Shown here: positions 26,881 to 42,488 of the stretch, piece after piece
Layout of the letters: each line of letters opens with the position of its first letter
How positions within the stretch are numbered: the stretch's first letter is position 1
Origin: Nitrosopumilus sp.
GTDB lineage: Archaea > Thermoproteota > Nitrososphaeria > Nitrososphaerales > Nitrosopumilaceae
NCBI GenBank assembly: GCA_003702545.1
Contig: REGK01000001.1
Location: forward strand, 1-58,201
Direction of reading: 5' to 3'
DNA length: 58,201 nucleotides
Made by a program: the position numbers and the translations under genes
The notes under the pieces: generated by a model
Seen by the model: only the letters and a program-made list of their open reading frames with translations
Databases searched by the model: none
Told to the model about the DNA's origin: nothing

Positions 26881-26921
26881 AAAATATAACCAAGAGTGAG
26901 TTTTGCACCCCAGTGCCAAAA
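26881..26921 (-). promoter_or_regulatory. TATA-like box plus upstream recurring motif copy (sense TTTTGGCACTGG)
   Basis: Plus strand CCAGTGCCAAAA at 26910-26921; sense TTATAT begins at 26889, gap 20 nt. Confidence 0.6.
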
Positions 26922-26922
26922 T

Positions 26923-27252
26923 TTAGATTTTGCAATCACAGCCTTTCTGTTTTAAAATTTGAATTTGTCTAGAGGGAGAATCAACAAAAATATCTTGGAT
27001 TGAATTGCCAGTTGCCTTTCTCTTATCTAGAGGGCTTTTGTGAGAATATCCCCTACGAGCCATCTCAAAAACAAGTTCTTCATGCCTAGAATAGAGAGCT
27101 TTTAGTTTTCCTTTCCAACGTATTGTCTCAGGGTGTAAAGAATATCCTTTTTTGTCTTGAGTGATTACTGCCCACATTGCATGTAGTTCTCGGTGCTCAC
27201 CTAACAAATGGTTTCTACATAATTTCTTTGGAGGAATATCCCAAATTCTCAT
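26923..27252 (-). CDS. Pyrimidine dimer DNA glycosylase / T4 endonuclease V family
   Basis: MRIWD.PPKKLCRNHLLGEHRELH...RHEELVFEMARRGYSH.SPL pattern; start set at ATG 27252. Confidence 0.85.
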   Translation of the reverse strand: MRIWDIPPKKLCRNHLLGEHRELHAMWAVITQDKKGYSLHPETIRWKGKLKALYSRHEELVFEMARRGYSHKSPLDKRKATGNSIQDIFVDSPSRQIQILKQKGCDCKI

Positions 27253-27254
27253 TT

Positions 27255-27380
27255 TTATGAATTCCAAAATTTTTTACAATTATAACACTGATTCTTGTGA
27301 ATTAGTCCATCAGAGTTTTTTCTTATTTCTATTGTTCCATAGTCATCAGAACCACAAGTAGGACATCCTTCATCTCTCAT
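27255..27380 (-). CDS. 41-aa zinc-ribbon microprotein
   Basis: Manual translation MRDEGCPTCGSDDYGTIEIRKNSDGLIHKNQCYNCKKFWNS; abuts both neighbouring genes. Confidence 0.75.
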   Translation of the reverse strand: MRDEGCPTCGSDDYGTIEIRKNSDGLIHKNQCYNCKKFWNS

Positions 27381-27821
27381 CTAAAATACACCCCTCATTC
27401 TTGCAGAATAATCATAATAAAACAAATTTTGAGGAGTGATTTCAATTGCTACTTCATTATGAGAATTTTTTTTCAGGAATTTTGATAACTCATATTCTTT
27501 TTCACCCAAGTATTTTTTCATTAAAATTTGGAGAATGTCTTTTCCAACATCATCAATGATTTTTACAGAGCCATTTCCACGTACTCCTTTGTAAGGCGGT
27601 TTATCAGATGCTATCTCAAATCCACAAACAGTGTTTTTTTTCAAATATTGAATGATTTTTGCAGACTTTTGTGTTGCACAATAAATTTTCTCATTAATTT
27701 GTACAAACCAAAGAGACAGAACGCTTGGAATACCGTCATTATTCATGTATGCAAGACGGATAGGAATTTTAGTATCAGAAATCATTTGATCATAATTTCT
27801 TTTTTCAAGTTTTTGTAACAT
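27381..27821 (-). CDS. Pyridoxamine 5'-phosphate oxidase-like flavin-binding split-barrel protein
   Basis: RLAY...GIPSVLSLWF...CATQKSAKI...YKGVRG pattern. Confidence 0.8.
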   Translation of the reverse strand: MLQKLEKRNYDQMISDTKIPIRLAYMNNDGIPSVLSLWFVQINEKIYCATQKSAKIIQYLKKNTVCGFEIASDKPPYKGVRGNGSVKIIDDVGKDILQILMKKYLGEKEYELSKFLKKNSHNEVAIEITPQNLFYYDYSARMRGVF

Positions 27822-27924
27822 TACTGTCCACCTTATTGATTACATATTTTGTATAACAGAAATCACAAGACCAATCTTCATATTTTTTACCACAAGTAAA
27901 ACAAGATGATATAATTTGACTCAT
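27805..27924 (-). CDS. 39-aa Cys4 microprotein
   Basis: MSQIISSCFTCGKKYEDWSCDFCYTKYVINKVDSNVTKT; ATG about 20 nt below a TTATATA box; overlaps the next gene start. Confidence 0.6.
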   Translation of the reverse strand: MSQIISSCFTCGKKYEDWSCDFCYTKYVINKVDSNVTKT

Positions 27925-27943
27925 AACAAGGATTGGTTTTAGA

Positions 27944-28018
27944 GTATATAATGTGAAAAAGAATTGCCACCTAGTGCTAATGTTAGCACCAGCAGCAATT
28001 ATGGCCACTAGTTAAATA
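27944..28018. promoter_or_regulatory. Divergent promoter with two TATA boxes and three motif copies
   Basis: CTAGTGCTAA 27971-27980, TTAGCACCAG 27983-27992, TGGCCACTAG 28002-28011; TATA boxes at 27945-27951 (-) and 28012-28018 (+). Confidence 0.7.
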
Positions 28019-28048
28019 GCAGATTTGGAAAAAGATCACGAACAAGAC

Positions 28049-28336
28049 ATGACAGATATAATCTGGGGAAATGGCGCAAATGTAGTATCAAACGATATTT
28101 TTGTTCTTAATGTTACACACAGAAAAAGTGGCAATAGTGGAAAATATTCAGATACTGAAAAAATCAGAATATCTGAAGCAGATATTCCAGGTCTACCACA
28201 TACAAGAGAAGATTGGAATGAAGAATCTCTGAAATCATGCGTAAATGAAGCCTTTCTGAAATGTGAAATTGAGCAAAGAGAGGATTCAGGTATTCTCTCT
28301 GCCAAAGTATCACATTCAGGAGTTGGCGGATACTAA
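28049..28336 (+). CDS. Hypothetical protein
   Basis: ORF 28025-28336; ATG 28049 fits the TATA spacing; TAATG-coupled to the next gene. Confidence 0.65.
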   Translation: MTDIIWGNGANVVSNDIFVLNVTHRKSGNSGKYSDTEKIRISEADIPGLPHTREDWNEESLKSCVNEAFLKCEIEQREDSGILSAKVSHSGVGGY

Positions 28337-29112
28337 TGTGGATGCCAAAACAAGGAAGTTGCAGTAAAATCACAAGGAGTGATTTCCAATTACTAATTCA
28401 AGGGAAGATACCTGCAATCATCATCAAAAATTTTTACAGTAAAAATCAATGTGATGAAATTTCTCAAAAAATTAACTCAATACAAAAATCAGATTTTAGC
28501 AATACAAAACTAGAACACATTGGAACATTTTTGATGGCACATGCAACAAAAAGGAAAGAATATTTTGAGAATGTAAAAAAAGACAAGAAAAAAAGACAAG
28601 AGATTTTTTCAACAGATATAGAACCCACTGTCAGGATTTTCAAGATATTTAAAAAACTATTTCCAGAATATGAGGTTTCTACAGCAAAGGAATTAAAAAA
28701 TGAATTTTCCCCATACATCATTAGAATTCATAAAAAAGGAAAATCAATTCCAATACACAAAGACAATGTGAAATATGAAGGTAGAGAATACAAACTATCA
28801 AAAATTGACAGTCAATTATCCTGTATTTTACATATCCAGGAATCAGAGAAAGGAGGAGAGTTGATAATTTATGATAAAAACTGGTCTATGGAAGATGAAA
28901 AATTCAGGAAAATAGATTTTGGATATTATCCGGAAATTATTTCAGAATCAAATTGTTGTAGAATATCAAATCTAAAAGCAGGAGATTTGGCAATAATTAA
29001 TCCAAACTATTTTCATCAAGTAACAAAAATTGAAGGAGAGGCACCAAGGATTTCTCTAGGAATGTTTATAGGAATTTTCAAGAAATATCAACAAATTGTA
29101 GGATGGGCATAA
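28336..29112 (+). CDS. 2OG-Fe(II) oxygenase superfamily protein
   Basis: HxD (IHKD), GGEL, distal His (FHQV) and R-x-S (RIS) motifs. Confidence 0.85.
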   Translation: MWMPKQGSCSKITRSDFQLLIQGKIPAIIIKNFYSKNQCDEISQKINSIQKSDFSNTKLEHIGTFLMAHATKRKEYFENVKKDKKKRQEIFSTDIEPTVRIFKIFKKLFPEYEVSTAKELKNEFSPYIIRIHKKGKSIPIHKDNVKYEGREYKLSKIDSQLSCILHIQESEKGGELIIYDKNWSMEDEKFRKIDFGYYPEIISESNCCRISNLKAGDLAIINPNYFHQVTKIEGEAPRISLGMFIGIFKKYQQIVGWA

Positions 29113-29759
29113 TGAAAAAAATTATTTTTATTGTTTTTGCACTGGCGATAATTTCAACAAACTATGCATCAGCCCACAAACTCATTAGTCATGATGACAG
29201 CCACAGAGATTTTGACTCAGCATTAGTCATTCCTGATCACAAGATTTCATGGGCAATTTATGAAAATCTAGGTGTAAATGAGGCCAAATTTTACACATTT
29301 GAGGCAAAAAAAGGAGATTCATTTTATGCAAGTATTGTAATTCCAAAAATCCAAGGATTAGAAAACTATGCACCCACACTAGTAATGGTTGGAGAAGATA
29401 ATTTTTTCAGGGATAAGGTAATTTATGAAAATGGTTTTCCAGGAAAAGAGTTCTATGAACCATTTGGCCAAGTAACATATTGGGAAAGACAAGAATTAAG
29501 AACAGAGATACCAAAAGATGGAACTTATTTCATAGTTGTTACAGATGAAAAAAACCAAAGCGGAAAATATAGTTTGGCAGTTGGAGAAATAGAGGACTTT
29601 TCAGGAGAAAACATGTTTACGTTATTACCTAAAGCATGGTTAGACACAAAATTTTTTGTAAATGATTATGTATCAATAGTAATTGCCTTTGGGATTTTTC
29701 TTGCGATGTGCAGTGTACCAGTAATTGCAATTTTCAAAAAAAGAAAAACAAAGCTTTAG
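29112..29759 (+). CDS. Exported protein with a C-terminal membrane anchor
   Basis: Signal peptide ending ASA-HK; FYEPF motif; C-terminal TM followed by a basic tail. Confidence 0.75.
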   Translation: MKKIIFIVFALAIISTNYASAHKLISHDDSHRDFDSALVIPDHKISWAIYENLGVNEAKFYTFEAKKGDSFYASIVIPKIQGLENYAPTLVMVGEDNFFRDKVIYENGFPGKEFYEPFGQVTYWERQELRTEIPKDGTYFIVVTDEKNQSGKYSLAVGEIEDFSGENMFTLLPKAWLDTKFFVNDYVSIVIAFGIFLAMCSVPVIAIFKKRKTKL

Positions 29760-29788
29760 CTAATTTTATTAAAATTCACGCATAAGAA

Positions 29789-29820
29789 AATTAGTTTGGT
29801 CTAATTAGTTTTGTCTAATT
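29789..29820. promoter_or_regulatory. Tandem imperfect palindromes AATTAG-N6-CTAATT
   Basis: aattagtttggtctaattagttttgtctaatt, about 10 nt upstream of TTTAATA at 29830. Confidence 0.55.
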
Positions 29821-29858
29821 TTCGAGTTGTTTAATAGAATTGAGAACTAAATTGGACT

Positions 29859-30140
29859 ATGAATGCATGGAATAAATTTTGGAAATGGTATGAAAATAAA
29901 ATACTTGGAAGTATAATTGTAATTGCAATTATTCAGTTCATTCAAGTTCCGCACATGGTATGGAATGCAGATATTATGCTAGAGGCAGGACTTGTTTCAA
30001 GAGTTCATCCTGTAATTGACTGGTTCTTGTATGGAGTAGACTTGATTGAGATTGTTTCAATTGTTAATGTTGGAATGATTATGTACAGCCTACTCAAGAA
30101 AAGACAATCAAAGAAGAAACTTTCTGCAAAAACAGCATAA
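29859..30140 (+). CDS. Small membrane protein
   Basis: Two hydrophobic segments and a basic tail. Confidence 0.7.
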   Translation: MNAWNKFWKWYENKILGSIIVIAIIQFIQVPHMVWNADIMLEAGLVSRVHPVIDWFLYGVDLIEIVSIVNVGMIMYSLLKKRQSKKKLSAKTA

Positions 30141-30965
30141 CTAATCTTTTGCTTCCCAGATAACACGTTGAGGAAATGGAATTTCCACTCCAGCCCTATC
30201 TAAGGCACGTTTTACAGTCGTAAGTAAGATGGGTTGAGCTTGACTCCAGTCATCTTTAGGATGCCATACCAAAACCTGGATATTTACGCTTGAATCACCC
30301 AATTCTTCAACCCTAAATTCAGGTTCTGGTACTTTCAAGACAAAAGGCATTGTGACTTCAATCTCTTTTTTTATCACAGAGATTGCATTTTCGATATCAT
30401 CTTTGTAGGATATACCAACCATAACATCTGCACGCCTTACAGTTGAAGCAGTTAAGGATCGAATATTTGAGGTAAAAAACTTCTCATTAGGGATTCGGAT
30501 AACAGTTCCATCAAATTTCCTTACACGACTAGAAAAAGTTCCAATATCTAACAAAGTTCCTGAAATAGACATGTCAGGAATCTGAATAGTATCTCCTTGT
30601 TTTGCAGGTTTTTCCAACATCAAGAAAACACCTGATATTAAATTGGAAACCACAGATTGTGTTGCAAATCCAATAACTACAGCAAATATTCCTCCGGCGA
30701 CAAGTAATCCAGACAAATCAATGCCTTGACTTGATGTGAATGCAAGAAATGAAATTATTATAATTCCAAAATAGAGTAACTTGCTGAGATTTTGTGCAGT
30801 GTCTTTAGGTAATGTGGGTGCATAGTATTTGTAAAACAACACCTTTACAACTTTGGCAATAATTAGACCAGTTGCCATAATAATTCCCCCAATCAATAAT
30901 GATAGTACAGTGAGGTTACCAACAATTTGCATCTCAGAGAGATTTTGTAAGAATTCTATAGGCAT
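30141..30965 (-). CDS. mscS: MscS mechanosensitive channel
   Basis: IGFATQSVVSNLISG, GDTI, IPNEK, AGVEIPFPQR; start set at ATG 30965. Confidence 0.93.
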   Translation of the reverse strand: MPIEFLQNLSEMQIVGNLTVLSLLIGGIIMATGLIIAKVVKVLFYKYYAPTLPKDTAQNLSKLLYFGIIIISFLAFTSSQGIDLSGLLVAGGIFAVVIGFATQSVVSNLISGVFLMLEKPAKQGDTIQIPDMSISGTLLDIGTFSSRVRKFDGTVIRIPNEKFFTSNIRSLTASTVRRADVMVGISYKDDIENAISVIKKEIEVTMPFVLKVPEPEFRVEELGDSSVNIQVLVWHPKDDWSQAQPILLTTVKRALDRAGVEIPFPQRVIWEAKD

Positions 30966-31714
30966 TATTCCAATCCCATCTCCATACTTGTGGTAATAGT
31001 AGTGTCTTCCCATGTGGGAGATTTTGTCCAATCAGTTGAAACAGGAGCTGTTTTGACATCAGCTATACTAACTACAGCTCGTTTTTTCATAGTTACTTTA
31101 ATTCCATCAATTATCGCTTTGGAATCCTCATAGTATAATGAGTTATCAGTTATGGGGAAAATTACTTTACTAACGGTCTGACCAGATGACAGAGTGTTTT
31201 CAATTACAATCTTCATTACTCCCTCAACAAAAGGAATAGAATCACTATAATCAGTAGCCAATGAAACTTCAGCATATTTACAAAGGGTTCCAGTATCAGG
31301 AGAACCATATAGTCCAAATCTTGAGTTCAAGGGATTGCAGGTAATCCAATCAAGTGAATCATGATGAGAGTCATGGATCAAAAATATACCAATTTCAATT
31401 GGGCAGTGCACAAAAATGCTAGCTGCAGAGTTTTCACTAAGATAGATTTCCTTATCAAATTTCAAGAAAACATATCCTGTTCTTCTGGCAGGATGGTTAA
31501 GTGGCCTAATAGGAGCAACTTCAATTTGAATTTGATTGGACTTTACAGGAACCATCTTTTCAACAATTTTTCCCTCAGAATCTTTTCTGAAATATGAAAA
31601 AGCATTTTCTCCAATCCTCTCAATTTTGATCTCAGTGTTTGGAAGTGAGATCTCAAGTAAATCATTTACATCATGTAAACCATATTTGGTGAAAGAATTC
31701 CCAGCATCACTCAT
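30965..31714 (-). CDS. DUF432-like protein
   Basis: PIRPLNHP, PIEIGIF, LYGSPDTGTLCKY; coupled to mscS. Confidence 0.7.
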   Translation of the reverse strand: MSDAGNSFTKYGLHDVNDLLEISLPNTEIKIERIGENAFSYFRKDSEGKIVEKMVPVKSNQIQIEVAPIRPLNHPARRTGYVFLKFDKEIYLSENSAASIFVHCPIEIGIFLIHDSHHDSLDWITCNPLNSRFGLYGSPDTGTLCKYAEVSLATDYSDSIPFVEGVMKIVIENTLSSGQTVSKVIFPITDNSLYYEDSKAIIDGIKVTMKKRAVVSIADVKTAPVSTDWTKSPTWEDTTITTSMEMGLE

Positions 31715-31814
31715 GATTCATTTTTTTACTTGAAATCTAGAATTTATGCTCTCTTATTTGAAGAGATCAAGAAATCGGTTTCAAAAAATTTCGAAAAAAT
31801 AAGAAAATTTAGCA

Positions 31815-33128
31815 TCACTCTAGGTTCAGAGGAATATTTGCACTACCAAAGTCTTCTGCAATTCTAAAGACATAGTCTTTTGAGGAATCATATTCGAATT
31901 CGGTTCCACCATATCCAATGTTTGGACCAAATAGAATGTTAAACTCTCTTGAATCACCAGGGTTTAATACAATTTGTCCACTGGTAAAGTCCATACCAGA
32001 ATATTTGAAGGCCTTTGAGCCATCCCATACATCATATGCACATATTTGGGGACTGGTGCAGTTTAATGCAACAATTTCAGAGCTTGTATTTTCAGCAAGC
32101 ATTCTGAAGGATAAAATCGCTTGACCTGTTGGAGAGATTTTAAATTCGCTTCCATCAGTATTGACTCCCTGCCAATAGTAAGTAATAGGACCTACACTGA
32201 ATTTTTGCGCAGTGGCCTTGTATTCGTATAGTTTAATAGATTTTTTGAGAGGCTTCTCACAGTCTAATCTTTCATAGGCCTTTTTGAATTCAGAGCACTT
32301 TTCAATTTCTGCTTCAATTGCAGCCAATTTTGGATCATTACTTTTCGGTTTAGAAGGTTTTTCTTCGGAGATTTCAGTCAAAGTTGTTGAAATCAATCCC
32401 ATTGACATCAAATGTTGTACACCATTAACAAATTCATTATCTGTAATGATGCCATCTGCCCACCAACCAGCGTTATTCTTTACCCAGGTTGGGACGCCTT
32501 CAGAAGATTCTGCAGAAACAGTTGTTGGAGGAACTTGGATAATTCCATCATTAATTAGAAACTCTATTCCTTTTAGGAAATCAGATTCAGATATAGAACC
32601 ATCTGCCCACCAACCAGCGTTATTCTTTACCCAGGTTGGGACGCCTTCAGAAGTGACTGGTCTAAGACTAGGATCTAGCCCATCTAAAATTTCATCCATG
32701 TTTTGTCCTGAAATTTTTACAACGGCTGCAGAAACGATATCAGAACTATCCCCTGTAGGAAGTGTAGAGTCTATGTATTTTGCATAAAGTACATCTCCAG
32801 GATTTGCAATTAATCGATTCTTTGTGCTTTCTCCAGAATCTGCAACATAAACAGTTCCCTTAAAGATTCCAGTGTAAACACCTGTTTCAACAACTTGTAT
32901 TTCTAATGCTTTTGGTGACGAATCAGACCAGACATATATCATAAACTTGTCAGCAAAATTTGGATATTCTTTTTTATTCATGTCATTATCTTTTACATAG
33001 ATTTCAGCAAAAGAATTACTAGATACAACATCTTGTTTCCAATATATTATTCCAACATTAGAAGATTCAGCATACACTAGGGGAATAGTAAAAAGCAACA
33101 GAGGTAATAGGAAAAAAAGATTTTTCAT
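31815..33128 (-). CDS. Secreted protein with two Trp-rich (VPTWVKNNAGWWADG) repeats
   Basis: Signal peptide; S-layer-like N-domain (VVETGVYTGIFKG); two repeats; C-domain paralogous to 33225-34130. Confidence 0.85.
   Translation of the reverse strand: MKNLFFLLPLLLFTIPLVYAESSNVGIIYWKQDVVSSNSFAEIYVKDNDMNKKEYPNFADKFMIYVWSDSSPKALEIQVVETGVYTGIFKGTVYVADSGESTKNRLIANPGDVLYAKYIDSTLPTGDSSDIVSAAVVKISGQNMDEILDGLDPSLRPVTSEGVPTWVKNNAGWWADGSISESDFLKGIEFLINDGIIQVPPTTVSAESSEGVPTWVKNNAGWWADGIITDNEFVNGVQHLMSMGLISTTLTEISEEKPSKPKSNDPKLAAIEAEIEKCSEFKKAYERLDCEKPLKKSIKLYEYKATAQKFSVGPITYYWQGVNTDGSEFKISPTGQAILSFRMLAENTSSEIVALNCTSPQICAYDVWDGSKAFKYSGMDFTSGQIVLNPGDSREFNILFGPNIGYGGTEFEYDSSKDYVFRIAEDFGSANIPLNLE
32389..32639. 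repeat. 251-bp direct repeat, copy 1
   Basis: Appears identical to 33805-34055 on manual comparison. Confidence 0.9.
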
Positions 33129-33150
33129 TAAATGAATTTCTGTGAATTCA

Positions 33151-33205
33151 TATTTAAAAAAAATAATTTTTGATTCCTAGTGGTAAAATTTCAATAGTGG
33201 TAAAA
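33151..33205 (-). promoter_or_regulatory. TATA box plus two motif copies
   Basis: CTAGTGGTAAAA 33177-33188 and ATAGTGGTAAAA 33194-33205; sense TTAAATA at 33157-33151. Confidence 0.7.
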
Positions 33206-33224
33206 ATGAAAAAGAAAGGAAGGG

Positions 33225-34130
33225 TTATCCCAACCCTAATGGGATGGAGAGACTTCCAAAGGGCTCACTAATTCTGAAGTGATAATCCTTGTTTGGATCA
33301 TACTCAAATGTGGTTCCACCACCCCCAATGTTTGGTCCAAAGAAAAAGTTGAAGAATCTTGGATCATTAGGTTTGAGTACCAATTGAGCACTTGTAAAGT
33401 CCATTTGGGAGTACTTGTAATCATTGCTACCGTTTGAAACATCATAATTACATACTGCAGGTCCAGTACAGTATAATGCCTCATTTTTATCACTACCTGT
33501 GTTTTCAGCTAGGAATCTAAGATAAAGCAAAGCTTGACCTGAAGAAGATATTTCAAAACTGTTTCCCTCAGTATTTAATCCAGACCAATAGTATGTAATT
33601 GGACCAACTTGATATGTTTGAGAGTTGAGTTTGTACTCATAGACTGCAATTTTATTCTCTGCTGCTTTTTCACAATTTAGTCGATCATATGCTTTGTTTA
33701 TTTCAGAACATGCCTCCAGTTCGGATTGATATCTAGATAGTTCTGAATCAGTGTTTTGTAGAGGAGTGGTTTTAACATCTTCTACGGCTTCATTTGAGGC
33801 AACAGAAATCAATCCCATTGACATCAAATGTTGTACACCATTAACAAATTCATTATCTGTAATGATGCCATCTGCCCACCAACCAGCGTTATTCTTTACC
33901 CAGGTTGGGACGCCTTCAGAAGATTCTGCAGAAACAGTTGTTGGAGGAACTTGGATAATTCCATCATTAATTAGAAACTCTATTCCTTTTAGGAAATCAG
34001 ATTCAGATATAGAACCATCTGCCCACCAACCAGCGTTATTCTTTACCCAGGTTGGAACATCAGCATATGCAAAAGACACAGTGGATGCAATTAAGAAAAT
34101 TGTGGCCATTGCAGTTAATTCAGTTTTCAT
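33225..34130 (-). CDS. Secreted protein with two Trp-rich repeats
   Basis: Signal peptide (FAYA-D), two repeats, Cys-containing C-domain paralogous to 31815-33128. Confidence 0.85.
   Translation of the reverse strand: MKTELTAMATIFLIASTVSFAYADVPTWVKNNAGWWADGSISESDFLKGIEFLINDGIIQVPPTTVSAESSEGVPTWVKNNAGWWADGIITDNEFVNGVQHLMSMGLISVASNEAVEDVKTTPLQNTDSELSRYQSELEACSEINKAYDRLNCEKAAENKIAVYEYKLNSQTYQVGPITYYWSGLNTEGNSFEISSSGQALLYLRFLAENTGSDKNEALYCTGPAVCNYDVSNGSNDYKYSQMDFTSAQLVLKPNDPRFFNFFFGPNIGGGGTTFEYDPNKDYHFRISEPFGSLSIPLGLG
33805..34055. repeat. 251-bp direct repeat, copy 2
   Basis: Appears identical to 32389-32639. Confidence 0.9.
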
Positions 34131-34152
34131 TATGGCTATTTTCGTAATATCG

Positions 34153-34251
34153 TATTTAAGCTAGTGCTAAAAATTTTTCTAGTGGTAAAAAATTATGTTT
34201 TTCGGAAAAAATCTAGTGCCAAAAGCATTTCAAGGTAATCTGCCTTATATG
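34153..34251. promoter_or_regulatory. Divergent promoter with three direct motif copies
   Basis: CTAGTGCTAAAA 34161, CTAGTGGTAAAA 34179, CTAGTGCCAAAA 34213; TATA boxes at 34153-34159 (-) and 34245-34251 (+). Confidence 0.75.
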
Positions 34252-34273
34252 CAAACCAAATTTATCTTAAAGA

Positions 34274-34801
34274 GTGAGTGAAAATCAGGAAGTTCTGAGA
34301 GGGCCTAGATTATCTGAACAAGATATCAAAGAATATGTCCTAGAAAGATTCGAAGATGTAAAACAGGGAAAAATCAAAAATCTTGTGTCATTTCAAGCTA
34401 TGAACAAATACATGATCATGGCACATAATCAAGAAGAATTAAAGATCTTAGGAAATATTGTTGCAAGTTATAAAAAAATCTCATTGTTAGACATAATATC
34501 AGAATATGAAGAACATCTAAAGATTGCACTAGAAAAACCACCAACCATAAAATCACATTCAAATGTAATAATGCATATTTTTGGATATTTTTCAAAAAAT
34601 TTCAGTCAACTAGAAAAAGAACAATTTTTCAAATTGTTAAATGATTTCAAAAAAGAAGAAATTACAATTGGAAAAATTTTATCTGAGATTAATCCAGTTA
34701 TTTATCGGTTCAATAGCACATATCTTGCAAGTCAGACATATTTTTTGCTATATTCAGATCCACGTCCAGGAAATTTGTTTCAGATGTTATCTGAAAAGTA
34801 A
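34274..34801 (+). CDS. YbgA/DUF1722 family protein
   Basis: LVSFQAMNKYMIMAH...LGNIVA...HSNVIMHIFGYFS...YLASQTYF pattern. Confidence 0.85.
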   Translation: MSENQEVLRGPRLSEQDIKEYVLERFEDVKQGKIKNLVSFQAMNKYMIMAHNQEELKILGNIVASYKKISLLDIISEYEEHLKIALEKPPTIKSHSNVIMHIFGYFSKNFSQLEKEQFFKLLNDFKKEEITIGKILSEINPVIYRFNSTYLASQTYFLLYSDPRPGNLFQMLSEK

Positions 34802-34803
34802 AG

Positions 34804-35964
34804 TTAGAAAAAGTCGGAGAGGGTTTTTTGTCTCATTAATTTTGAGATATTTCCATGAGAAAGCCATTCAGATTTACTAATACTCATTTTCTCAGATGCC
34901 AAATTCAGAGCATGATCAAAATTATCTGCAATTATAGGGGTTTGTTTCATTGCTTCTCGAATTCCCTCTCGAACCTGCCAAACGCCTACAGGTATTGCAT
35001 ATTCAGGCCGTATTTCTCTAAAAATCAAGACGCCGGATTGAATATTTTTTTCACTCAAGTATTCCAACACACCCAATTTAGCTGCAAAATAGGCTCCTGC
35101 AATAGCAGGTGGATGATCAATGCCCCTAGCATCTTCAAAATCAGAGCCAAATCCCAGAACACCATTCGAATACCAAGATTCAATCATCTCATAAATCCAT
35201 CTATGAGGAAACAAAACTACGGAAAAATGATTTCCCAAATGTTCATATGAAAAAACCTTGTGTGAATCGATTAAATCACAATCAAGTATTTCACCTAGAA
35301 GCGAGTTTGAGATAATATCATCAGTTGCAGTAATGCTCCACTTGGTTGGAACAAGTTTACGTTTTTGGCCAAGCATTCCAATACTAAAACATTTTTGAAT
35401 TTTTGAAATATCAATTCCAGAGTTGTACAAATTCATAACTGCATCTTGTGCCTTCAAATCTTTGTCATAGAAGGCCTTTTCAATTGATTTTACAGAAGAA
35501 TTTCCAGAGAATTTAGCAGATTTTATTTCTCCAACAGGACCAAAAGGGGCACTTTCACCATCTAGAGAAATATTAGAAGAAACAGATTTTTCAAAAATCA
35601 AATCAGAATCAGTAGGTTTTGATGACATTGTAACTTCTTGAAGATTTTCAATGTAACGTCCGTCTGTTTGATCAATAGATAATTTTTGAGTTCCACGAAC
35701 TAAATTCAATCTAAAGTTTATAATTTCCTCCAAAGATTTTCCTTTCCATTTTTCAGGACTATCAAGTAAGCTAGTGTCACCATGAATCGGGGGAACCATA
35801 GGACCAACAAAGACTTTTGGATAATTATACGACCCAACAAATACAGAGGGAGGACTGGTTCCACTAATTGAATCAGAGGAAAACAAATTTCCATATTTTG
35901 ATAATGTCTCATGCCATTTTGTTAAAATTGAACGACGAATATCTTGTGAATCTGAAGACATCAA
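34804..35964 (-). CDS. nreA: Nre family PCNA-interacting DNA repair protein
   Basis: SPPSVFVGSYNYPKV.VGP, RKLVPTKWSITATD, PVGVWQVRE; C-terminal PIP box QKTLSDFF. Confidence 0.9.
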   Translation of the reverse strand: MMSSDSQDIRRSILTKWHETLSKYGNLFSSDSISGTSPPSVFVGSYNYPKVFVGPMVPPIHGDTSLLDSPEKWKGKSLEEIINFRLNLVRGTQKLSIDQTDGRYIENLQEVTMSSKPTDSDLIFEKSVSSNISLDGESAPFGPVGEIKSAKFSGNSSVKSIEKAFYDKDLKAQDAVMNLYNSGIDISKIQKCFSIGMLGQKRKLVPTKWSITATDDIISNSLLGEILDCDLIDSHKVFSYEHLGNHFSVVLFPHRWIYEMIESWYSNGVLGFGSDFEDARGIDHPPAIAGAYFAAKLGVLEYLSEKNIQSGVLIFREIRPEYAIPVGVWQVREGIREAMKQTPIIADNFDHALNLASEKMSISKSEWLSHGNISKLMRQKTLSDFF

Positions 35965-36054
35965 AATTCATGTCTAATTTGTGCCTAATAACTTGACTAA
36001 TTATCGAAGTTGACGGGAGGTAAACACAAGTATTCCCACATAACTAGAATATTT

Positions 36055-36978
36055 ATGACAATAAACAGAATTGTTTCATTCTTACCAAGTGCAACAGAAT
36101 TACTATATGAATTTGGAGTTCAAGACAAGATATACGGAGTTACACATGAATGTAAATTTCCTACTGAAGCAATTTCAAAACCACAAGTAATCAATTCAGT
36201 GATAGATTCGGATAAATTATCAAGTAATGAGATCAATACACAGACATGTCAATTACTGAACGAAGGAAAAGACATTTTCATTTTAAATGAAAAAAATCTA
36301 AAGGATGCGAATCCAGATCTAATAATCTCTCAGGAGACATGTGAGGTATGTGCGGCATATACCAATCAGATCAGCAAAGCACTACAAATTCTTGATAAAA
36401 AACCAATTATTCATTCAATGGATCCACATAACGTATCAGAAATCTTAGATTCGGTAATCAAACTAGGTAAAATTTTAGAAAAAGATAGCAAAGCAAAAAT
36501 GATTTCAGATTTGTTGAAAAAAAGAATTCAGAAGATACAAAATGTGAGACATAGTAACATTCCAAAAATTCTGGCAATAGAATGGATAGATCCTTTTTTT
36601 ACAGCAGGTCATTGGGTTCCAGAAATGATAGAAATTGCAGGAGGCAAAAATATGATAAGCAATACAGGAGAGCATTCAAGACGTATGGATTTTGATGAGA
36701 TTACAGAATCAGATGCAGATATCATAATTCTCATGCCATGTGGATTTGACACAAAGCGTACAATTTCAGAATACAAGAACATATTAGAAAAAAATGACAG
36801 ATGGAACAAACTCAGAGCAGTAGAAAACAAGGCTGTTTTTGCAGTCGATGCAAATTCATTTTTTAGCAAACCCAGTATTAGAACTATTGAAGGAATAGAG
36901 ATACTTGCAAAAATAATTCACCAAGAAAAATTTGAAGAAGTTAATGTTTCAGAAAATTCTTTTGCAAGCCTTTATTGA
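36055..36978 (+). CDS. BtuF-like cobalamin/iron-siderophore substrate-binding protein
   Basis: RIVSFLPSATE, GVTHEC, QETCEVCA, EWIDPFFTAGHWVPEMI, MPCGF; start set at ATG 36055; no signal peptide visible. Confidence 0.85.
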   Translation: MTINRIVSFLPSATELLYEFGVQDKIYGVTHECKFPTEAISKPQVINSVIDSDKLSSNEINTQTCQLLNEGKDIFILNEKNLKDANPDLIISQETCEVCAAYTNQISKALQILDKKPIIHSMDPHNVSEILDSVIKLGKILEKDSKAKMISDLLKKRIQKIQNVRHSNIPKILAIEWIDPFFTAGHWVPEMIEIAGGKNMISNTGEHSRRMDFDEITESDADIIILMPCGFDTKRTISEYKNILEKNDRWNKLRAVENKAVFAVDANSFFSKPSIRTIEGIEILAKIIHQEKFEEVNVSENSFASLY

Positions 36979-36987
36979 AAAATTCAA

Positions 36988-38367
36988 TCAAATTGGTTTA
37001 CCTTTGTACTGGTAATCAATTACTTTGTGGAATAAATTATGAGATGCTACAACAGTTAATGTAACTACAAACATTCCAACAAAATTCCTTATTGTCATTA
37101 ATTCATTTGGAGTATTAGCTATCAATGAAGTTTCAAATAACACATAATAGTTATCAAATAACCAAAATGCCAAAGTAATCCAAGACAAGATACCGGCTAT
37201 CAAATAACCCAGACGAGTTTTATTGTGAATTAGTATTATTGAAAACCCAATTGCAAGATACCAAATGGTAGAACAGATTAACCATAAAGGTTCATAGACA
37301 TCAGGTCTATCATCTAACCAATAGTAACTTGAACCAATAACAGCTAATGTAAATAGAGAAACTTGAATTAATTTTTGGTTAATTTTGAATCCAGTTTTTT
37401 CTTCTCGTTGTTGCATTTGAGGAGGATTTGATTTCATTTCTTTTGTTGCAGTATCAATTGCCTCACGCACAGACTTTAGACGAATAGGAATAATTTTTGT
37501 TATGGAATTATCAGTGATGACGGCATTGTGAACCAAACTATCAATTAAAGGCCTTGCAAGAGAAGCTTGTACAGGTGTAACTAGATCAACCCAATAAGAC
37601 GACAATCTAGTAGTCAGAAATGGAATTTGAATGACGAAAAGATTTTTGTTCAGATATGCAGAATAAACACGCATTAATTCCCCATAAGTCATTTTGTCAG
37701 GACCACCAATCTCAAAAATTTTGCCCATGGTTTCAGGTTTTGAAAGAGATTTGATTAGATATTCAATAACATCATCTATTGCAATTGGTTGAGTCAGGGA
37801 CATTACCCAGGAAGGACACACCATAACACTCAATCTTTCTACAAGATAACGAAGCATGGTATAAGATCCACCTTTTGCGCCAATGATTATAGAAGCCCTA
37901 AATTCAGTTACAGGTATACTTCCAGATGCAAGAATTTCACCAACTTCCTTTCTACTGCGCATATGAGGAGATAAATCTAAACTATCATTAACCAATCCGC
38001 CTAAATAGATAATTCGTTTCACACCAGTTTCAGTTGCAGCTCTGAGAAAGTTTTGAGCTTGTATTCTTTCTCTTGCAGCAAATTTTTGCCAATCTTCTTT
38101 ATGACCCTCCATAGAATGCAATAAATAAAATGCAGTGTCAATACCAGACATTGCATTTTTCAATTCATCAAAATTGAAAACATCTGCTTTAACATATTTA
38201 GTATTTTCATTATTAGGTAATTCTTTTCTACTCAGTCCTTTTACTGTATAACCTGATGAAACAAGAGAAGAAATTAATTTTGAACCTATAAAACCAGTTG
38301 CCCCAGTAACCAAAATCGAAAAAGGTTTGTAATGAGAGGCTTTAGATTCAGAAATCAATTGTTTCAT
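36988..38367 (-). CDS. YbjT-like atypical SDR/NAD(P)-binding protein with a C-terminal membrane domain
   Basis: LVTGATGFIG, YLLHSM, IIYLGGL, SPHMRSR, RASIIIG; about four TM helices at the C-terminus. Confidence 0.85.
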   Translation of the reverse strand: MKQLISESKASHYKPFSILVTGATGFIGSKLISSLVSSGYTVKGLSRKELPNNENTKYVKADVFNFDELKNAMSGIDTAFYLLHSMEGHKEDWQKFAARERIQAQNFLRAATETGVKRIIYLGGLVNDSLDLSPHMRSRKEVGEILASGSIPVTEFRASIIIGAKGGSYTMLRYLVERLSVMVCPSWVMSLTQPIAIDDVIEYLIKSLSKPETMGKIFEIGGPDKMTYGELMRVYSAYLNKNLFVIQIPFLTTRLSSYWVDLVTPVQASLARPLIDSLVHNAVITDNSITKIIPIRLKSVREAIDTATKEMKSNPPQMQQREEKTGFKINQKLIQVSLFTLAVIGSSYYWLDDRPDVYEPLWLICSTIWYLAIGFSIILIHNKTRLGYLIAGILSWITLAFWLFDNYYVLFETSLIANTPNELMTIRNFVGMFVVTLTVVASHNLFHKVIDYQYKGKPI

Positions 38368-38574
38368 TTATGATATAGCTCCCATCAGTTCTTGCTTTTG
38401 TTTTTCTTTTTTCACTTTGATGCCTAAACCAATTGTTATGCCGCCCATGGCTAACCAAAGATAGCCCCCAGTAGTGAATGCGGAATGTAGTGACACATCA
38501 GAATATTGTGCAGTTAAAAATCCACCACCAAGACCAAGTAAGGCAATACCTGCAAAAAGAATTGTTTTGTCCAT
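38368..38574 (-). CDS. Small 2-TM membrane protein
   Basis: MDKTILFAGIALLGLGGG...; AAGGAGA upstream; abuts the SDR gene. Confidence 0.7.
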   Translation of the reverse strand: MDKTILFAGIALLGLGGGFLTAQYSDVSLHSAFTTGGYLWLAMGGITIGLGIKVKKEKQKQELMGAIS

Positions 38575-38630
38575 TAGACATATCTCCTTTCTTGATGTAT
38601 TTTGTGCATGAATAATTTTTGCTTCAATAT

Positions 38631-38778
38631 TATTTAACATGGTTCTAATTTTTCCTGCTAGTGCTAAATTATCATGTTTTGCCTACAATGTAGGAACAAA
38701 AAATCTCAAGAGTGGAGCATAAATGGCAGTTTAGCACTAGCCAAAGTAGTTAGCATTAGTTATATAATATACCACTAA
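38631..38778. promoter_or_regulatory. Divergent promoter of the regulator with four motif copies
   Basis: CTAGTGCTAAA 38658; TTAGCACTAG 38731, TTAGCATTAG 38750 and ATACCACTAA 38769 (19-bp period) straddling TTATATA at 38760. Confidence 0.75.
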
Positions 38779-38786
38779 AATTAGTC

Positions 38787-39629
38787 ATGGTCTACATACG
38801 CGCAAAGAAAGTAAAATCTGATCAATATCTCTATCTAGTGAAAAGCGTGTGGGATTCAAAAAAGAGTACATCAAAACAAGAAATCATCAAATATCTTGGA
38901 AAAGCATCTGAGGTTGTCAAAGAGGACATTCCAATAGACTATAGAAATGATGCTAAAGTACTATCAGTATTAGCATCGTACAATCCAGAAGATATCAAGA
39001 AAAGAGAGGACGTTGCAAAGAAATCAAAGCAGCAACTATACAAAAAATTAACTGAAGGAAACATTCAAGATTGTATAAAAATCTATGAAGAGCATATCAA
39101 AATTTTTAGTTCCTCAAATTTCTTTGATAAAATTCTAAAACCTACAATGCATAGAATTGGAGATGAATGGTCTAAAGGTAAAATGAGTATAGCTACAGAA
39201 CATGTTGCAAGCAATATTGCTCAAACACTTGTAAAAATAATAATGGACCAGGTATCAGCGAAAGGTAATAAGAAGAAAGTTCTCATATGTGTTCCATTAG
39301 GAGAAGAGCATCATTTGGGATGTGACGTCTTGGAGACATATCTATCAATCAAAGGATTCAAAATTTTTAATATGGGGACGTCAATCCCAACAGAATCAAT
39401 TCTTAGTTTCATTGACAACAATAAACCAGATGTAGTATTGGTGTCAATTACATTAGAAGACAATCTGTCAGCAGGCCAAAGACTAGTTAAGAAAATAAAA
39501 GATCATGTAGACATTCCAGTGTTAGTTGGAGGATACGCCCTTCAAGCAAAGAAGATTCCAAAATTTGCAGGTCAGTTAATTCCAGATTGTGGTCTTGAAG
39601 AAGTTCCTAAAATTTTAAGAAAAGTTTAA
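38787..39629 (+). CDS. Cobalamin-binding regulator with CarH/LitR-type photosensor signature and a non-MerR N-terminal domain
   Basis: Helical cap W-SKGKMSIAT-EH (W-x9-EH); Rossmann B12 domain GEEHHLG (ExHxxG), SIT, VGG; basic beta-rich N-terminus. Confidence 0.85.
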   Translation: MVYIRAKKVKSDQYLYLVKSVWDSKKSTSKQEIIKYLGKASEVVKEDIPIDYRNDAKVLSVLASYNPEDIKKREDVAKKSKQQLYKKLTEGNIQDCIKIYEEHIKIFSSSNFFDKILKPTMHRIGDEWSKGKMSIATEHVASNIAQTLVKIIMDQVSAKGNKKKVLICVPLGEEHHLGCDVLETYLSIKGFKIFNMGTSIPTESILSFIDNNKPDVVLVSITLEDNLSAGQRLVKKIKDHVDIPVLVGGYALQAKKIPKFAGQLIPDCGLEEVPKILRKV

Positions 39630-39630
39630 T

Positions 39631-40971
39631 CTAATTGCTTGTTTGCAAAAAAGATTCAATCTTGGGTTGACATAAAATCGAACTATGTGCTGCAGAGTCA
39701 GTTCCAATTCCATAGCTAACAGTAGAATCACCCACAAAAAACAAGCCTTCTATGCCTGGAATTTGATGAGGCATCTTTGATTTCCAGACCATCCCAGGTT
39801 CTTTTACCACAGATTCAACTAATTTCCAAGCCATAGGCCTCTCCCATAGCAAGGATGAGTTAAAGTCTGGATATATTGATGAAATTTCATCTTTCATGGA
39901 TTGGACAATTTGTTTTATTTTCTGAGAGTCATCTGCGACAGATGGATCTACAGGAGTACCAGCAATTATCAAGTGTTCACCAGGTGGGGAAACAGAAGAA
40001 GTGATGTTTGAAATGAAAAATATTCCCTTTGTCGTATAATGTTCCCCTACAGGAAAAACAACTTGCCTTGAATCAATTTTAGAATTTAGTGCAAAGTGAA
40101 CCTCAACTACAGCAGTTTTTTTATCTAAACGATTAATTTTTTCAATGAATTTCTTGTCAATTACACCATCATCAAACAATTGATTTAGTGCTATGTAAGC
40201 AGGATATGAAATTACAACACACGAGGTAGGAAAAAATGAATCATCCTCAGTCATAACCCCCGTGACTTTAGAATCAGAAATTACGATTTTTTTCACATGC
40301 TTATTTGTGTCAATTATCCCATTTTTCTCAAGGATGTAATCTGCCAAGACATTTGAAATTGAATCATAACCACCATCGTCCGGATAAGCAAATTCACTTG
40401 TTCCACCCTTGAACGGATTTGCACGAATTATGGTTCTTGCAAATTCACCTAATGAAATATGATCAGCAGTATCTGCAAAAGCTAACATGCACACAGCTTC
40501 AAAAAAGGCTTTTGTGTCATCGTCTAATTTTTTAGTTAATTCAGTAAGAGACTTGTCATCCCATTCTTCAGTTTTTTCAATAGAAGTAAATGCCATTGGG
40601 AGTAGCAATTTAAGTAGACTTAGTCGGCTTCTCATAGGAATTAAAGATAATCGTAGTAAATCACCCATTCCTTTTGGGTATTTATGAAATCCAGTATCAG
40701 AATGAAATGCAATATTGTCAACTTTTGCGAGTTTTAATCTAGATTCAATTCCAATACTTTTCAATACTTCAAAAATTGCAGATTTTTTGTAAAATGGCAT
40801 AATATGGAATCCGTTATCTAAAATGTGGTTTTTGTACATCAACGAGGCAGTTCTGCCTCCTAATTTGGAAGATTTTTCAAGAACTCTCACATGGTGGCCT
40901 TCCTTTGCAAGCAATGCGCCAGTGGTCAAGCCACCCACACCTGCACCTATTACGAAGATATCATCTGCCAT
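39631..40971 (-). CDS. FAD-dependent oxidoreductase, phytoene desaturase/amine oxidase superfamily
   Basis: IGAGVGGL, LEKSSKLGGR, DNGFH, GLFFVGDS. Confidence 0.85.
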   Translation of the reverse strand: MADDIFVIGAGVGGLTTGALLAKEGHHVRVLEKSSKLGGRTASLMYKNHILDNGFHIMPFYKKSAIFEVLKSIGIESRLKLAKVDNIAFHSDTGFHKYPKGMGDLLRLSLIPMRSRLSLLKLLLPMAFTSIEKTEEWDDKSLTELTKKLDDDTKAFFEAVCMLAFADTADHISLGEFARTIIRANPFKGGTSEFAYPDDGGYDSISNVLADYILEKNGIIDTNKHVKKIVISDSKVTGVMTEDDSFFPTSCVVISYPAYIALNQLFDDGVIDKKFIEKINRLDKKTAVVEVHFALNSKIDSRQVVFPVGEHYTTKGIFFISNITSSVSPPGEHLIIAGTPVDPSVADDSQKIKQIVQSMKDEISSIYPDFNSSLLWERPMAWKLVESVVKEPGMVWKSKMPHQIPGIEGLFFVGDSTVSYGIGTDSAAHSSILCQPKIESFLQTSN

Positions 40972-41396
40972 GATTTTTCAGCACATATTACAAATTCATC
41001 CATAGTCTTGCTCATTTTCTTGACAACAAAATTTTGCAAAAAAGGAAATAGTTTAAGGAAGTTATTGAAACGCAAGGTTACATCAATAGTAATCACAGTT
41101 CCATTATCTTTTTCATCATAAAATTCGATAAAAGAACTTCCTTTCAAAGGACCAGTCATAATATAAATTTCATGAATATTAGGATAAACAATGACATGTT
41201 TTGTTTTAATTTGAATTGTTATCCCTAAGAAATTTATTTTCTCATTAACAATTTTTCCATATTTGTTTTCTTCAAGCACATCAAGAGACTTGAAATAATT
41301 TGGCATAATGTTATGAAAATTCTCTACATCAGTACTAATTTGAAAAATGTGTGGTTGTGAAAGTTTTGAATATCTTTGAAGTGTAAACTGTTTCAT
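40950..41396 (-). CDS. SRPBCC/START-like (polyketide cyclase) protein
   Basis: IFQISTDVENFHNIMP...GPLKG...C-terminal helix pattern. Confidence 0.75.
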   Translation of the reverse strand: MKQFTLQRYSKLSQPHIFQISTDVENFHNIMPNYFKSLDVLEENKYGKIVNEKINFLGITIQIKTKHVIVYPNIHEIYIMTGPLKGSSFIEFYDEKDNGTVITIDVTLRFNNFLKLFPFLQNFVVKKMSKTMDEFVICAEKSWQMISS

Positions 41397-41755
41397 TGCG
41401 CAGCAACCATTCCTAAATAATTTGACAAATTTGTCTTTGTAATTTTAAAGTCAGGATAGTTATTCATGATTTGTTTTGCAAGTAATGTCATTGCCATTCT
41501 TACACCATTAGTTTTTTGAGGATCAGTGTTTGGATAAAGACGAATTGTTGTTTTGTTTTTCTTAGTAGAAATTTCAATTAGAAATTCTTGATGATTCTCA
41601 TCAACTACCACTGTTGGAAGTAACGCAGTAAAATTATCTTTGTCAACAAAAATAGTTTGAATTTTTATCAGTGATGAATTTCTTTGGAATATAGGTGAAA
41701 AATTTTCTGAGAAATTATTCAGATCAATTTTGCCATTAAATACAATATGAGGCAT
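41393..41755 (-). CDS. Hypothetical protein
   Basis: 120 aa; ATGA overlap with the SRPBCC gene; TATA box upstream. Confidence 0.75.
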   Translation of the reverse strand: MPHIVFNGKIDLNNFSENFSPIFQRNSSLIKIQTIFVDKDNFTALLPTVVVDENHQEFLIEISTKKNKTTIRLYPNTDPQKTNGVRMAMTLLAKQIMNNYPDFKITKTNLSNYLGMVAAQ

Positions 41756-41776
41756 GAATTTTTTATCGTTTTTCAG

Positions 41777-41880
41777 TATATAAAAAAACTAGAAAATTAT
41801 CATAGTGCCAACATATGATTAGATAATCCATTAATAGGCACAAATTAGCACTAGAATAATACATTTTTGAGATTAAAATA
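41777..41880. promoter_or_regulatory. Divergent promoter with two motif copies
   Basis: ATAGTGCCAA 41802-41811 (18 nt from the - strand TATA) and TTAGCACTAG 41845-41854 (18 nt from TTAAAATA at 41873). Confidence 0.7.
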
Positions 41881-41901
41881 CTACCAGAGCAAAAAAAGAT
41901 T

Positions 41902-42042
41902 ATGGGACAAACAAATGAATTAGAATCAACATATGCAGCAATTGCAGAAAGTAAAGAAAAATTATTTGAAATGTTATTAAAAAAACTATCAACGAGTAAA
42001 GATTTAGAAAGTACAATGGCAAGAGTAGTAGCTGTTTCATAG
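41902..42042 (+). CDS. 46-aa hypothetical helical protein
   Basis: MGQTNELESTYAAIAESKEKLFEMLLKKLSTSKDLESTMARVVAVS; lies at leaderless distance from a TATA box. Confidence 0.55.
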   Translation: MGQTNELESTYAAIAESKEKLFEMLLKKLSTSKDLESTMARVVAVS

Positions 42043-42046
42043 TAAA

Positions 42047-42277
42047 TTGTTTAAATTAAAACCATACAAGCCAAATATTTTAACTGCATTTGGAGTTATG
42101 TTTTTAATTTCTGCAGCTATAATTCCAATACAAAATTTGATAGTATGGGGACCTGATTATGTACATCATTTTTACACATCATCAGAAATTACATCTGAAA
42201 AAATATCTATCGGAGTAATTGTATTAGGGATTTCATTTATTATTTTAGGATACAAAAAGCAAGTACACATAGAGTGA
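42047..42277 (+). CDS. Small 2-TM membrane protein
   Basis: Two hydrophobic segments. Confidence 0.65.
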   Translation: MFKLKPYKPNILTAFGVMFLISAAIIPIQNLIVWGPDYVHHFYTSSEITSEKISIGVIVLGISFIILGYKKQVHIE

Positions 42278-42314
42278 TTAGCACTAGAAAAAATATTTTC
42301 TTCATCTTAAATAA
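42278..42314 (+). promoter_or_regulatory. Motif copy plus TATA box upstream of the TFB operon
   Basis: TTAGCACTAG 42278-42287; TTAAATAA at 42307, gap 19 nt. Confidence 0.72.
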
Positions 42315-42487: not shown

Positions 42488-42488
42488 A

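Follow-up and report, generated by a model that had tools for sequence, protein, structure and literature searches.

Cobalamin photoreceptors of the CarH type act in the dark as adenosylcobalamin (AdoCbl)-bound tetramers with one head on each direct repeat, and light breaks the tetramer into monomers or dimers; as described in PMC8156234, the CarH proteins that have been studied leave DNA in the light. For the Streptomyces LitR, the schematic of PMC11519972 joins dark repression to light activation, and the biochemistry is stated there to be unknown. In archaea, according to PMC5937170 and PMC2241852, activators bind upstream at a conserved distance from weak transcription factor B recognition elements (BREs), and repressors within or downstream; at the targets of TFB-RF1 the TATA box is good, the BRE is weak and the distance of the site is conserved, and any change of spacing abolishes activation by GvpE. 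The present work concerns a 10-bp box, TTRSCACTAK, and its candidate reader, a B12-binding protein encoded at 38787-39629, in a 58,201-nucleotide (nt) stretch of Nitrosopumilus sp. (contig REGK01000001.1; this whole stretch is called the window), whose assembly (G000 below) has 1.22 Mb and is 93.6% complete. The homologues of its proteins that bear an organism name are from Nitrosopumilus.

The candidate regulator has in common with CarH and class I LitR (Thermus thermophilus, PDB 5C8D/5C8E; Bacillus megaterium; Myxococcus xanthus) a B12 module with W-x9-EH and ExHxxG, and the two systems resemble each other in a non-palindromic site that occurs in direct repeats, in a site at the regulator's own promoter and in the presence of photolyase and DUF1722 genes among the targets. 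The regulator is, however, without the MerR winged-helix head, and whereas the CarH operator consists of 3-4 tandem 11-bp direct repeats over the promoter, the box here has 10 bp and a period of 18-19 nt, the invariant copy lies upstream of the promoter, many promoters have a single copy, and the machinery is the archaeal TBP/TFB one. Since it has no MerR head and its operator differs, the regulator is not a member of CarH; it is likely a CarH-type sensor working on an archaeal activator geometry. The Streptomyces LitR-LitS pair is similar in having an alternative initiation factor as target and in its model of dark repression and light activation (PMC11519972), and differs by its MerR head and by a target that is a sigma factor and not a TFB. 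With TFB-RF1 (Pyrococcus) and GvpE (haloarchaea) the system shares a conserved spacing between the site and the weak BRE and good TATA box downstream of it, and a site of its own for each of two divergent promoters (PMC5937170, PMC2241852), but these are unrelated proteins without a B12 module; the TFB-RF1 site is a palindrome just upstream of the BRE, whereas the box here ends 12-13 nt upstream of the BRE and a second copy lies on it.

TTRSCACTAK is very probably the operator of the 38787-39629 protein. As a possibility, put forward tentatively, this protein would be a cobalamin photoreceptor with a transposase-derived head that acts as dark repressor (at two-copy promoters, over the BRE) and as light activator (from a copy 2.5 turns upstream of the TATA box, in either orientation), brings the archaeal initiation machinery to promoters without a BRE and switches on photolyase, DUF1722 and a dedicated TFB, which would make it the first light-sensing transcription circuit of ammonia-oxidising archaea. 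A literature search that covered few subscription journals found no description of a light-sensing regulator in these archaea, nor of this box and regulator.

The box and its place before the TATA element

In what follows, the gap is the number of nt from the box to the first T of the TTAWAW element, for sense and inverted copies alike; site 1 is the upstream copy of the box, and site 2 a weaker copy 18-19 nt downstream that abuts the TATA box. An earlier note on this DNA had listed sixteen copies of a motif TT[A/G][G/C]CACTAG, all of which are present (nine exact, six with one mismatch and one, at 38769, with two); its consensus stands apart from the last base, which is better given as G or T. 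The box is non-palindromic, as the note had described it. A concealed palindromic left arm was sought and none was found. The ten sense gaps listed (20, 19, 19, 19, 19, 20, 19, 18, 18 and 19 nt) were measured again at the same values, and the 20 nt given for the inverted copy of the DUF1722 promoter becomes 22 by the same convention. The features of the locus are the following.

38787..39629, + strand: candidate regulator of 280 aa, predicted beta-sheet head and CarH-type B12 module (PF02607 and PF02310, alignment, predicted structure)
38787..38984, + strand: predicted DNA-binding head, residues 1-66, not a MerR helix-turn-helix (structure model, HHalign)
38731..38740, + strand: site 1 before the regulator gene itself, gap 19, TATA box at 38760
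38750..38759, + strand: site 2 of the regulator promoter, one mismatch, abutting the TATA box and over the BRE, conserved in orthologues
38769..38778, + strand: third copy at the regulator promoter, two mismatches
38658..38667, - strand: site 1, gap 20 (first T of the TATA box at 38637), small membrane gene and NAD-dependent epimerase (36988-38367)
38639-38648: degenerate site 2 of the small-membrane-gene/epimerase promoter
34179..34188, - strand: site 1, gap 19, 301-aa secreted-type protein (33225-34130)
34161..34170, - strand: site 2 (exact, +18) over the BRE of the 33225-34130 promoter
34213..34222, - strand: inverted site of the DUF1722 promoter, gap 22 to the TATA box at 34245
34274..34801, + strand: DUF1722 gene
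33177..33186, - strand: single site 1, gap 19, T-rich BRE, gene 31815-33128
33194-33203: further one-mismatch copy near the 31815-33128 promoter
27983..27992, + strand: site 1, gap 19, unit from 28049 (then 2OG-Fe(II) oxygenase, 28336-29112)
28002..28011, + strand: site 2 over the BRE of the 28049 promoter
27971..27980, - strand: single site 1, gap 19, 39-codon CxxC...CxxC open reading frame (ORF) from 27924 and flavin-binding-type gene (27381-27821)
26910..26919, - strand: site 1 with one mismatch, gap 20, gene 26539-26853
41802..41811, - strand: single site 1, gap 18, unit 41755-39631 of three genes, the last of them a flavin oxidoreductase (PF01593)
41845..41854, + strand: single site 1, gap 18, small ORF from 41902
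42278..42287, + strand: single site 1, gap 19, pyrimidine-rich BRE, ORF 42335-42487 with the TFB paralogue behind
42489..43400, + strand: regulon-specific TFB paralogue with a changed last helix-turn-helix

The copies are not a product of chance: 16 exact ones occur in the assembly, 14 of them in intergenic DNA, which makes up 10% of the bases. Nine of the 16 lie inside 26910-42287 (15.4 kb), where 0.09 would be expected from the rate in the rest of the genome, and a relaxed scan found 16 sense units at gap 18-20, ten in the window and six elsewhere. That housekeeping promoters are essentially without good copies, as had been noticed, was borne out: a box at gap 17-21 occurs in 4 of 128 promoters that were called independently of the motif, all four in the region. 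Across the genome, TTAWAW is most frequent at 28 and 29 nt ahead of the ATG, with 30 of 707 genes at each of these two distances and about 3 at any other, in agreement with the TATA calls used for the gaps. The third copy of the regulator promoter (38769), between the TATA box and ATG, is not conserved in orthologues and is probably there by chance. Site 2 of the 26539-26853 promoter is decayed in the window, and most orthologues retain it.

A set of 32 loci centred on the regulator (619 kb) contains 256 exact copies, 248 of them intergenic, and TTAWA follows at a gap of 18, 19 or 20 nt after 13, 115 and 23 of them respectively (151 of the 256) and at a gap of 0 or 1 nt after 6 and 19, the count being 1.4 per gap elsewhere. 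No peak was found in these copies one turn further out, and none with the TATA box upstream of the box. A TATA peak on the opposite strand led us to recognise a third class of promoter, that of the inverted copy. For DUF1722 this copy has a gap of 22 nt in 23 of the 27 genomes with a called TATA box (30 hits; standard deviation (SD) 0.4), and its distance to the neighbouring copy varies from 18 to 43 nt (SD 6.0); the DUF1722 promoter of G235 has a sense copy at 19 in its place, and in the 29106 family, too, sense and inverted forms both occur. By arithmetic, the near-palindromic TRSCA core occupies the five base pairs at -28..-24 from the first T of the TATA box both at a sense gap of 19 and at an inverted gap of 22; the position relative to the TATA box is conserved and the orientation is not. 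The sense orientation reported in the earlier note thus stands for the ten units but is not obligatory.

The putative operator consists of a 10-bp copy, alone or with another one at a distance of 18-19 nt. In a set of 164 promoters (51 loci), the second copy is present with at most two mismatches in 93, against 0.6% in shuffled sequences, with three in 5 and with four or more in 66, which have the upstream copy only. This distribution is bimodal and gene-specific, 37 of 38 regulator promoters being double and none of 14 TFB-paralogue promoters. Site 2 spans -10..-1 from the TATA box and so covers the BRE, that is, the bases read by the TFB helix-turn-helix. At the start-anchored regulator promoters (n=67), site 1 is perfect in 53 and site 2 in 8, and site 1 is found with at most one mismatch in 56; the 11 promoters without either site include genes inside operons and paralogues. 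In the 34130 family, site 2 is perfect in 17 of 40 promoters. Of 45 exact copies before a loose TATA-like hexamer, 29 have an upstream copy and 16 do not; by eye, 12 of these 16 are site 1 and four are inverted DUF1722 sites, and site 2 is therefore not seen alone. The extra copies at 28002, 34161 and 38750 that the note had counted among its motif positions do exist, as conserved, weaker sites 2 over the BRE, a repressor position, and not as extra activator sites.

The candidate regulator and the genomes that carry it

The box in front of a TATA box co-occurs with the regulator gene across genomes. Units of box, 17-21 nt and TTAWA number 2-15 per genome (median 9) in the 23 genomes with a regulator orthologue (identity of at least 65%) and 0-2 in the 11 without; four genomes with divergent regulator forms only have 0-2. 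A second draw of genomes gave 5-12 units in 13 with the regulator, 0-2 in 8 without it, and 4 in one in which the gene is split. The plain count of the 10-mer per genome separates the groups poorly, whereas the count of box and TATA box separates them. The regulator's own promoter has the same box and spacing in two further families, and box and head are both nearly unchanged across the three. A comparison of orthologous promoters in regulator-less genomes was seldom possible, as most of the targets could not be located in them: the flavin oxidoreductase was found in 0 of 5, the 26853 family in 1 of 5, and the TFB paralogue reached 43% at best.

The genome with the split gene is complete (G118:C1:1500195-1500391, two frames) and keeps its 4 units, possibly a regulon in early decay or possibly a sequencing error.

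The CarH/LitR motif W-x9-EH of the four-helix bundle is present in the regulator as W128, E138 and H139 by alignment; across 40 diverse homologues E138 and H139 are invariant and W128 nearly so. The B12-binding motif ExHxxG...SxT...GG is found as GEEHHLG, SIT and GG, and the GxxW, EH, GxxH and GxxxP signature as GDEW, EH, GEEH and GTSIP; the light-response signatures, four in number, are those defined in PMC11796333, and all four are thus found in the regulator. Its structure model (predicted local distance difference test, pLDDT, 83.5) has photocobilin and CarH as best folds, and the closest structural or profile matches are photocobilin, a Chloracidobacterium B12 domain and CarH, with methionine synthase behind.

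The head (residues 1-66) is modelled as three beta-strands and then a helix (pLDDT 91), a MerR winged-helix domain not being present. Set against known DNA-binding folds such as AP2, WRKY and the integrase arm, it gave no clear match; its best structural alignment is to an unrelated ribosomal chain (Z 5.0, root-mean-square deviation 2.9, 60 aligned), and an Atlas feature search gave unnamed clusters only (best 0.83), a lead. Residues 1-42 match the N-terminus of a 526-aa DDE transposase (PF01609) with an HHalign probability of 98% and an E of 8e-14; the regulator differs from the transposase in having a B12 module and no catalytic domain, and the DNA binding of the segment is putative in both. 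A complex prediction for regulator, TBP and TFB paralogue scored 0.00, which is no answer from the model. Of 251 genomes of the order, 91 have the head, some of them in families other than the marine one, and full-length forms of the regulator are named from Ca. Nitrosocaldus and Ca. Thermoplasmatota.

The head also occurs alone or fused to HNH, AbiEii or unnamed domains (P0221-P0270), which suggests an unnamed, mobile DNA-binding module. Several genomes have, near photolyase, a regulator paralogue of 35-37% identity (L039:10402-11265, L025) that lacks both W-x9-EH and the box, an arrangement that resembles the CarA/CarH pairing.

Targets, sign of the regulation and alternatives

Photolyase is present in 13 of the 23 regulator-positive genomes, in one paralogue-only genome and in none of the 11 regulator-negative ones, and a single-copy promoter drives it, directly or via a two-gene unit, in 9 of the 16 loci examined. 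All 19 regulator-positive genomes and none of the 15 regulator-negative ones have a DUF1722 gene above the family cut-off; one boxed gene of G010 is a TudS-DUF1722 fusion, and bacterial light-responsive operons contain DUF1722 genes, as reported in PMC11417400. With photolyase and DUF1722 as targets the output is most likely light-on, and a regulon switched on by light is what we consider probable. No cobalamin synthesis or uptake gene is found among the boxed promoters listed. The window contains an AdoCbl-dependent mutase gene (11573-13096), so AdoCbl status matters to the cell.

Promoters with the upstream copy alone mostly have a poor BRE: an 'AA' at -7..-3 is found in 7 of the 66 (3 of 24 families) and in 3 of 27 inverted ones. 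It is commoner in tRNA promoters (14 of 21, these being the 21 of 30 that could be anchored by the TATA-profile method), in background promoters (61 of 124) and at TATA-like hexamers taken at random from intergenic DNA (328 of 829); the control interval -17..-13 is not depleted of AA (47 of the 66). In the last helix, the clade of the TFB paralogue (42489-43400) has ISAVTIRDR, against VTEVTIRNR or VSDVTIRNR in the five further TFBs of G000, and it may read a different BRE; two TBPs were seen beside the six TFBs. The paralogue is very probably not the reader of the box: its best identity is 43-45% in four of five distant genomes that have box and regulator (50% in the fifth).

Many promoters of the TFB paralogue and of DUF1722 have C/T-rich runs just before the TATA box. 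The 50-codon ORF 42335-42487 is a member of a cysteine-bearing protein family (about 61 aa) that lies behind a box in 8 genomes; its own cysteine motif looks decayed, and an ORF of this type precedes the TFB gene in about one third of genomes.

The model that we propose combines these two arrangements of the operator. The beta-sheet head would read the box, one head per copy, and the regulator is predicted to sense light through AdoCbl. In the dark, the AdoCbl-bound oligomer would bridge sites 1 and 2 cooperatively and thereby keep TFB off the BRE at the regulator's own gene, at 34130, at 28049 and at others, and it would not activate the single-copy promoters. The cleavage of AdoCbl by light would result in the dissociation of the oligomer and would free the weak site 2, the strong site 1 staying or becoming occupied; the smaller light species on site 1 would then help TFB or TBP to load at promoters with a good TATA box and a poor BRE. 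A symmetric or flexibly tethered species would explain the tolerated inversion, and the dedicated TFB paralogue, as one of the targets, may widen the response.

The sign of the regulation, activation, is what we infer from geometry alone. The earlier note had taken the motif for an activator site, and for the upstream copy this reading is backed by the fixed gap, by the position kept on inversion, by promoters poor in BRE and strong in TATA, and by the lack of copies downstream of the TATA box; the upstream copy also lies clear of the TFB/TBP zone. The note's suggestion that the logic may be opposite to that of CarH fares less well: because site 2 lies over the BRE and orientation is not obligatory, the logic is probably not simply opposite, activation being likely added to dark repression with an output that is still light-on. 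We rate repression through site 2 as likely and, given that the box is the operator of the regulator, activation from site 1 as somewhat likely; the whole model, a light-state activator at site 1 and a dark-state repressor at two-copy promoters, we regard as plausible, a little short of probable.

The regulator could instead be a plain CarH-like dark repressor, an AdoCbl oligomer anchored at site 1 with its other heads over BRE and TATA box (at site 2 or non-specifically), which light removes. In the account of PMC8156234 every studied AdoCbl CarH acts so, with one head per direct repeat; moreover, site 2 covers the BRE in 93 of the 164 promoters, a symmetric oligomer could tolerate inversion, and the TFB of the regulon, with its altered recognition helix, could be what reads the poor BREs. 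We nevertheless find such a repressor unlikely, since 66 of the 164 promoters, all those of the TFB paralogue included, are without trace of site 2, since site 2 is not seen alone and no copies lie over or downstream of the TATA box, the cheapest places for repression, and since the spacing to the TATA box is kept within about 1 nt even after inversion.

An activator at both copies is improbable. The site-2 protomer would replace the TFB-BRE contact or work with the altered TFB paralogue, and the two-copy promoters would be the strongest ones, without repression; this agrees with a site 2 at a fixed 0-1 nt from the TATA box, perfect in 17 of 40 promoters of the 34130 family, and with GvpE, which uses two 8-nt portions at fixed spacing. 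However, site 2 lies on bases read by TFB, whereas the site of GvpE is upstream of the BRE; the regulator promoters keep site 2 imperfect (perfect in 8 of 67), and the TFB paralogue was not found in four of five distant genomes with box and regulator (best 43-45%).

It is about equally improbable that the input or the sign is another one, the AdoCbl dark form activating and light switching off, or the protein reporting cobalamin supply or oxidative state. The spread of the head to 91 of 251 genomes, with families outside the marine one, the many targets without known function and the AdoCbl-dependent mutase gene of the window would fit it, but photolyase and DUF1722/TudS are sensible targets only for light-on, the photoreceptor signatures are nearly invariant, and cobalamin synthesis and uptake genes are missing from the listed boxed promoters. 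That another protein (the TFB paralogue or an unlinked factor) reads the box, the B12 protein being merely a target, is the most improbable reading, to which the leftover boxes of the regulator-negative G210, G148, G177 and G021 and a head whose DNA binding is only predicted lend something, but which conflicts with box counts that drop to 0-2 wherever the gene is absent within the genus, with the near constancy of box and head across three families and with a TFB paralogue that does not track the box.

Several points weigh against the light-activator model and its operator. The genomes compared are kin and the loci were picked around the regulator, for which reason the counts of co-occurrence are given without a P value; in other genera of the family the contrast is smaller, with 0-10 units (median 3, n=24) in genomes with the regulator and 0-3 (median 1, n=10) in those without. 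The regulator-less complete genome G210 keeps a perfect sense box at gap 19 before the 29106 family, the regulator-less G021 has a box beside thiC, and three of seven regulator-negative promoters of a three-hairpin RNA (see below) have one, leftovers that a recent loss of the regulator would explain. In G000 the promoter of the pyrimidine-dimer glycosylase has no box, and no photolyase was found in that assembly, which is 93.6% complete. The head matches no Pfam family and has no clear solved relative, with no Foldseek match under an E of 0.001, so that its predicted DNA binding rests on the co-occurrence and on the transposase link. The background BRE signal is weak (49% against 40% at random), a poor BRE could mean the use of a different TFB, and five photolyase-operon promoters (L057, L058, L059, L063, L065), not in the BRE test set, have an A-rich BRE. 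Activation from site 1 in the light departs, finally, from the studied CarH proteins, because those leave DNA in the light.

Neighbouring genes, transcripts and significance

The region 26.5-43.4 kb encodes a pyrimidine-dimer glycosylase, a 2OG-Fe(II) oxygenase, DUF1722, Nre, an NAD-dependent epimerase, the B12-binding protein, a flavin oxidoreductase and TFB. The promoter of the glycosylase (26923-27267), boxless in G000, has an upstream box in its orthologues of G003 and G026. The products of 33225-34130 and 31815-33128 are secreted-type paralogues with a common doubled PTWVKNNAGWWA segment and without a Pfam family, and the first, of 301 aa, is the most constant two-copy target across the family. 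Elsewhere in G000, a box at gap 20 on the strand opposite thiC (G000:C60:19683-19692) is nearly letter-identical in the regulator-less G021 and may be conserved for a different reason.

Outside the window, a non-coding stretch behind a box, 19 nt and a TATA box (L169:1720-1880; G000:C69, about 5220-5380) is predicted to form three hairpins with a common internal loop. Compensatory changes occur in 12 of its 33 predicted pairs (11 genomes), and no Rfam match was found. Of 48 genomes, 31 have the hairpin pattern, whether or not the regulator is there, and often together with single copies dispersed elsewhere. At the promoters of the element, a box with no more than one mismatch is found in 10 of 16 regulator-positive genomes, which were partly selected by the box, and in 3 of 7 negative ones, a comparison that does not discriminate. 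We consider it doubtful that this RNA is a member of the regulon.

Contigs of four marine metatranscriptome runs cover 27-30 of the 30 bins of 25500-44000 and give no level, strand or start; from their depths and their ends near 26854-26863, 38575 and 38801-38811 nothing was inferred. In the same four runs no contig covers the three-hairpin element.

The ammonia-oxidising archaea, which rank among the most numerous microbes of the sea, synthesise cobalamin, and light inhibits them. With a box, a candidate reader and a list of targets, their light response becomes directly testable in cultured strains, and since photolyase and DUF1722 accompany it, the regulator offers a sequence marker for light-adapted lineages. 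If the model is true, a B12 photoreceptor that activates through the loading of TBP or TFB, from a site whose position is fixed and whose orientation is not, would extend a family known as repressors, and would provide a small green-light activator for archaeal genetics. In these archaea, the genes of sun protection would then be switched on by helping weak promoters to fire, and not only by release as in the bacterial sensors.

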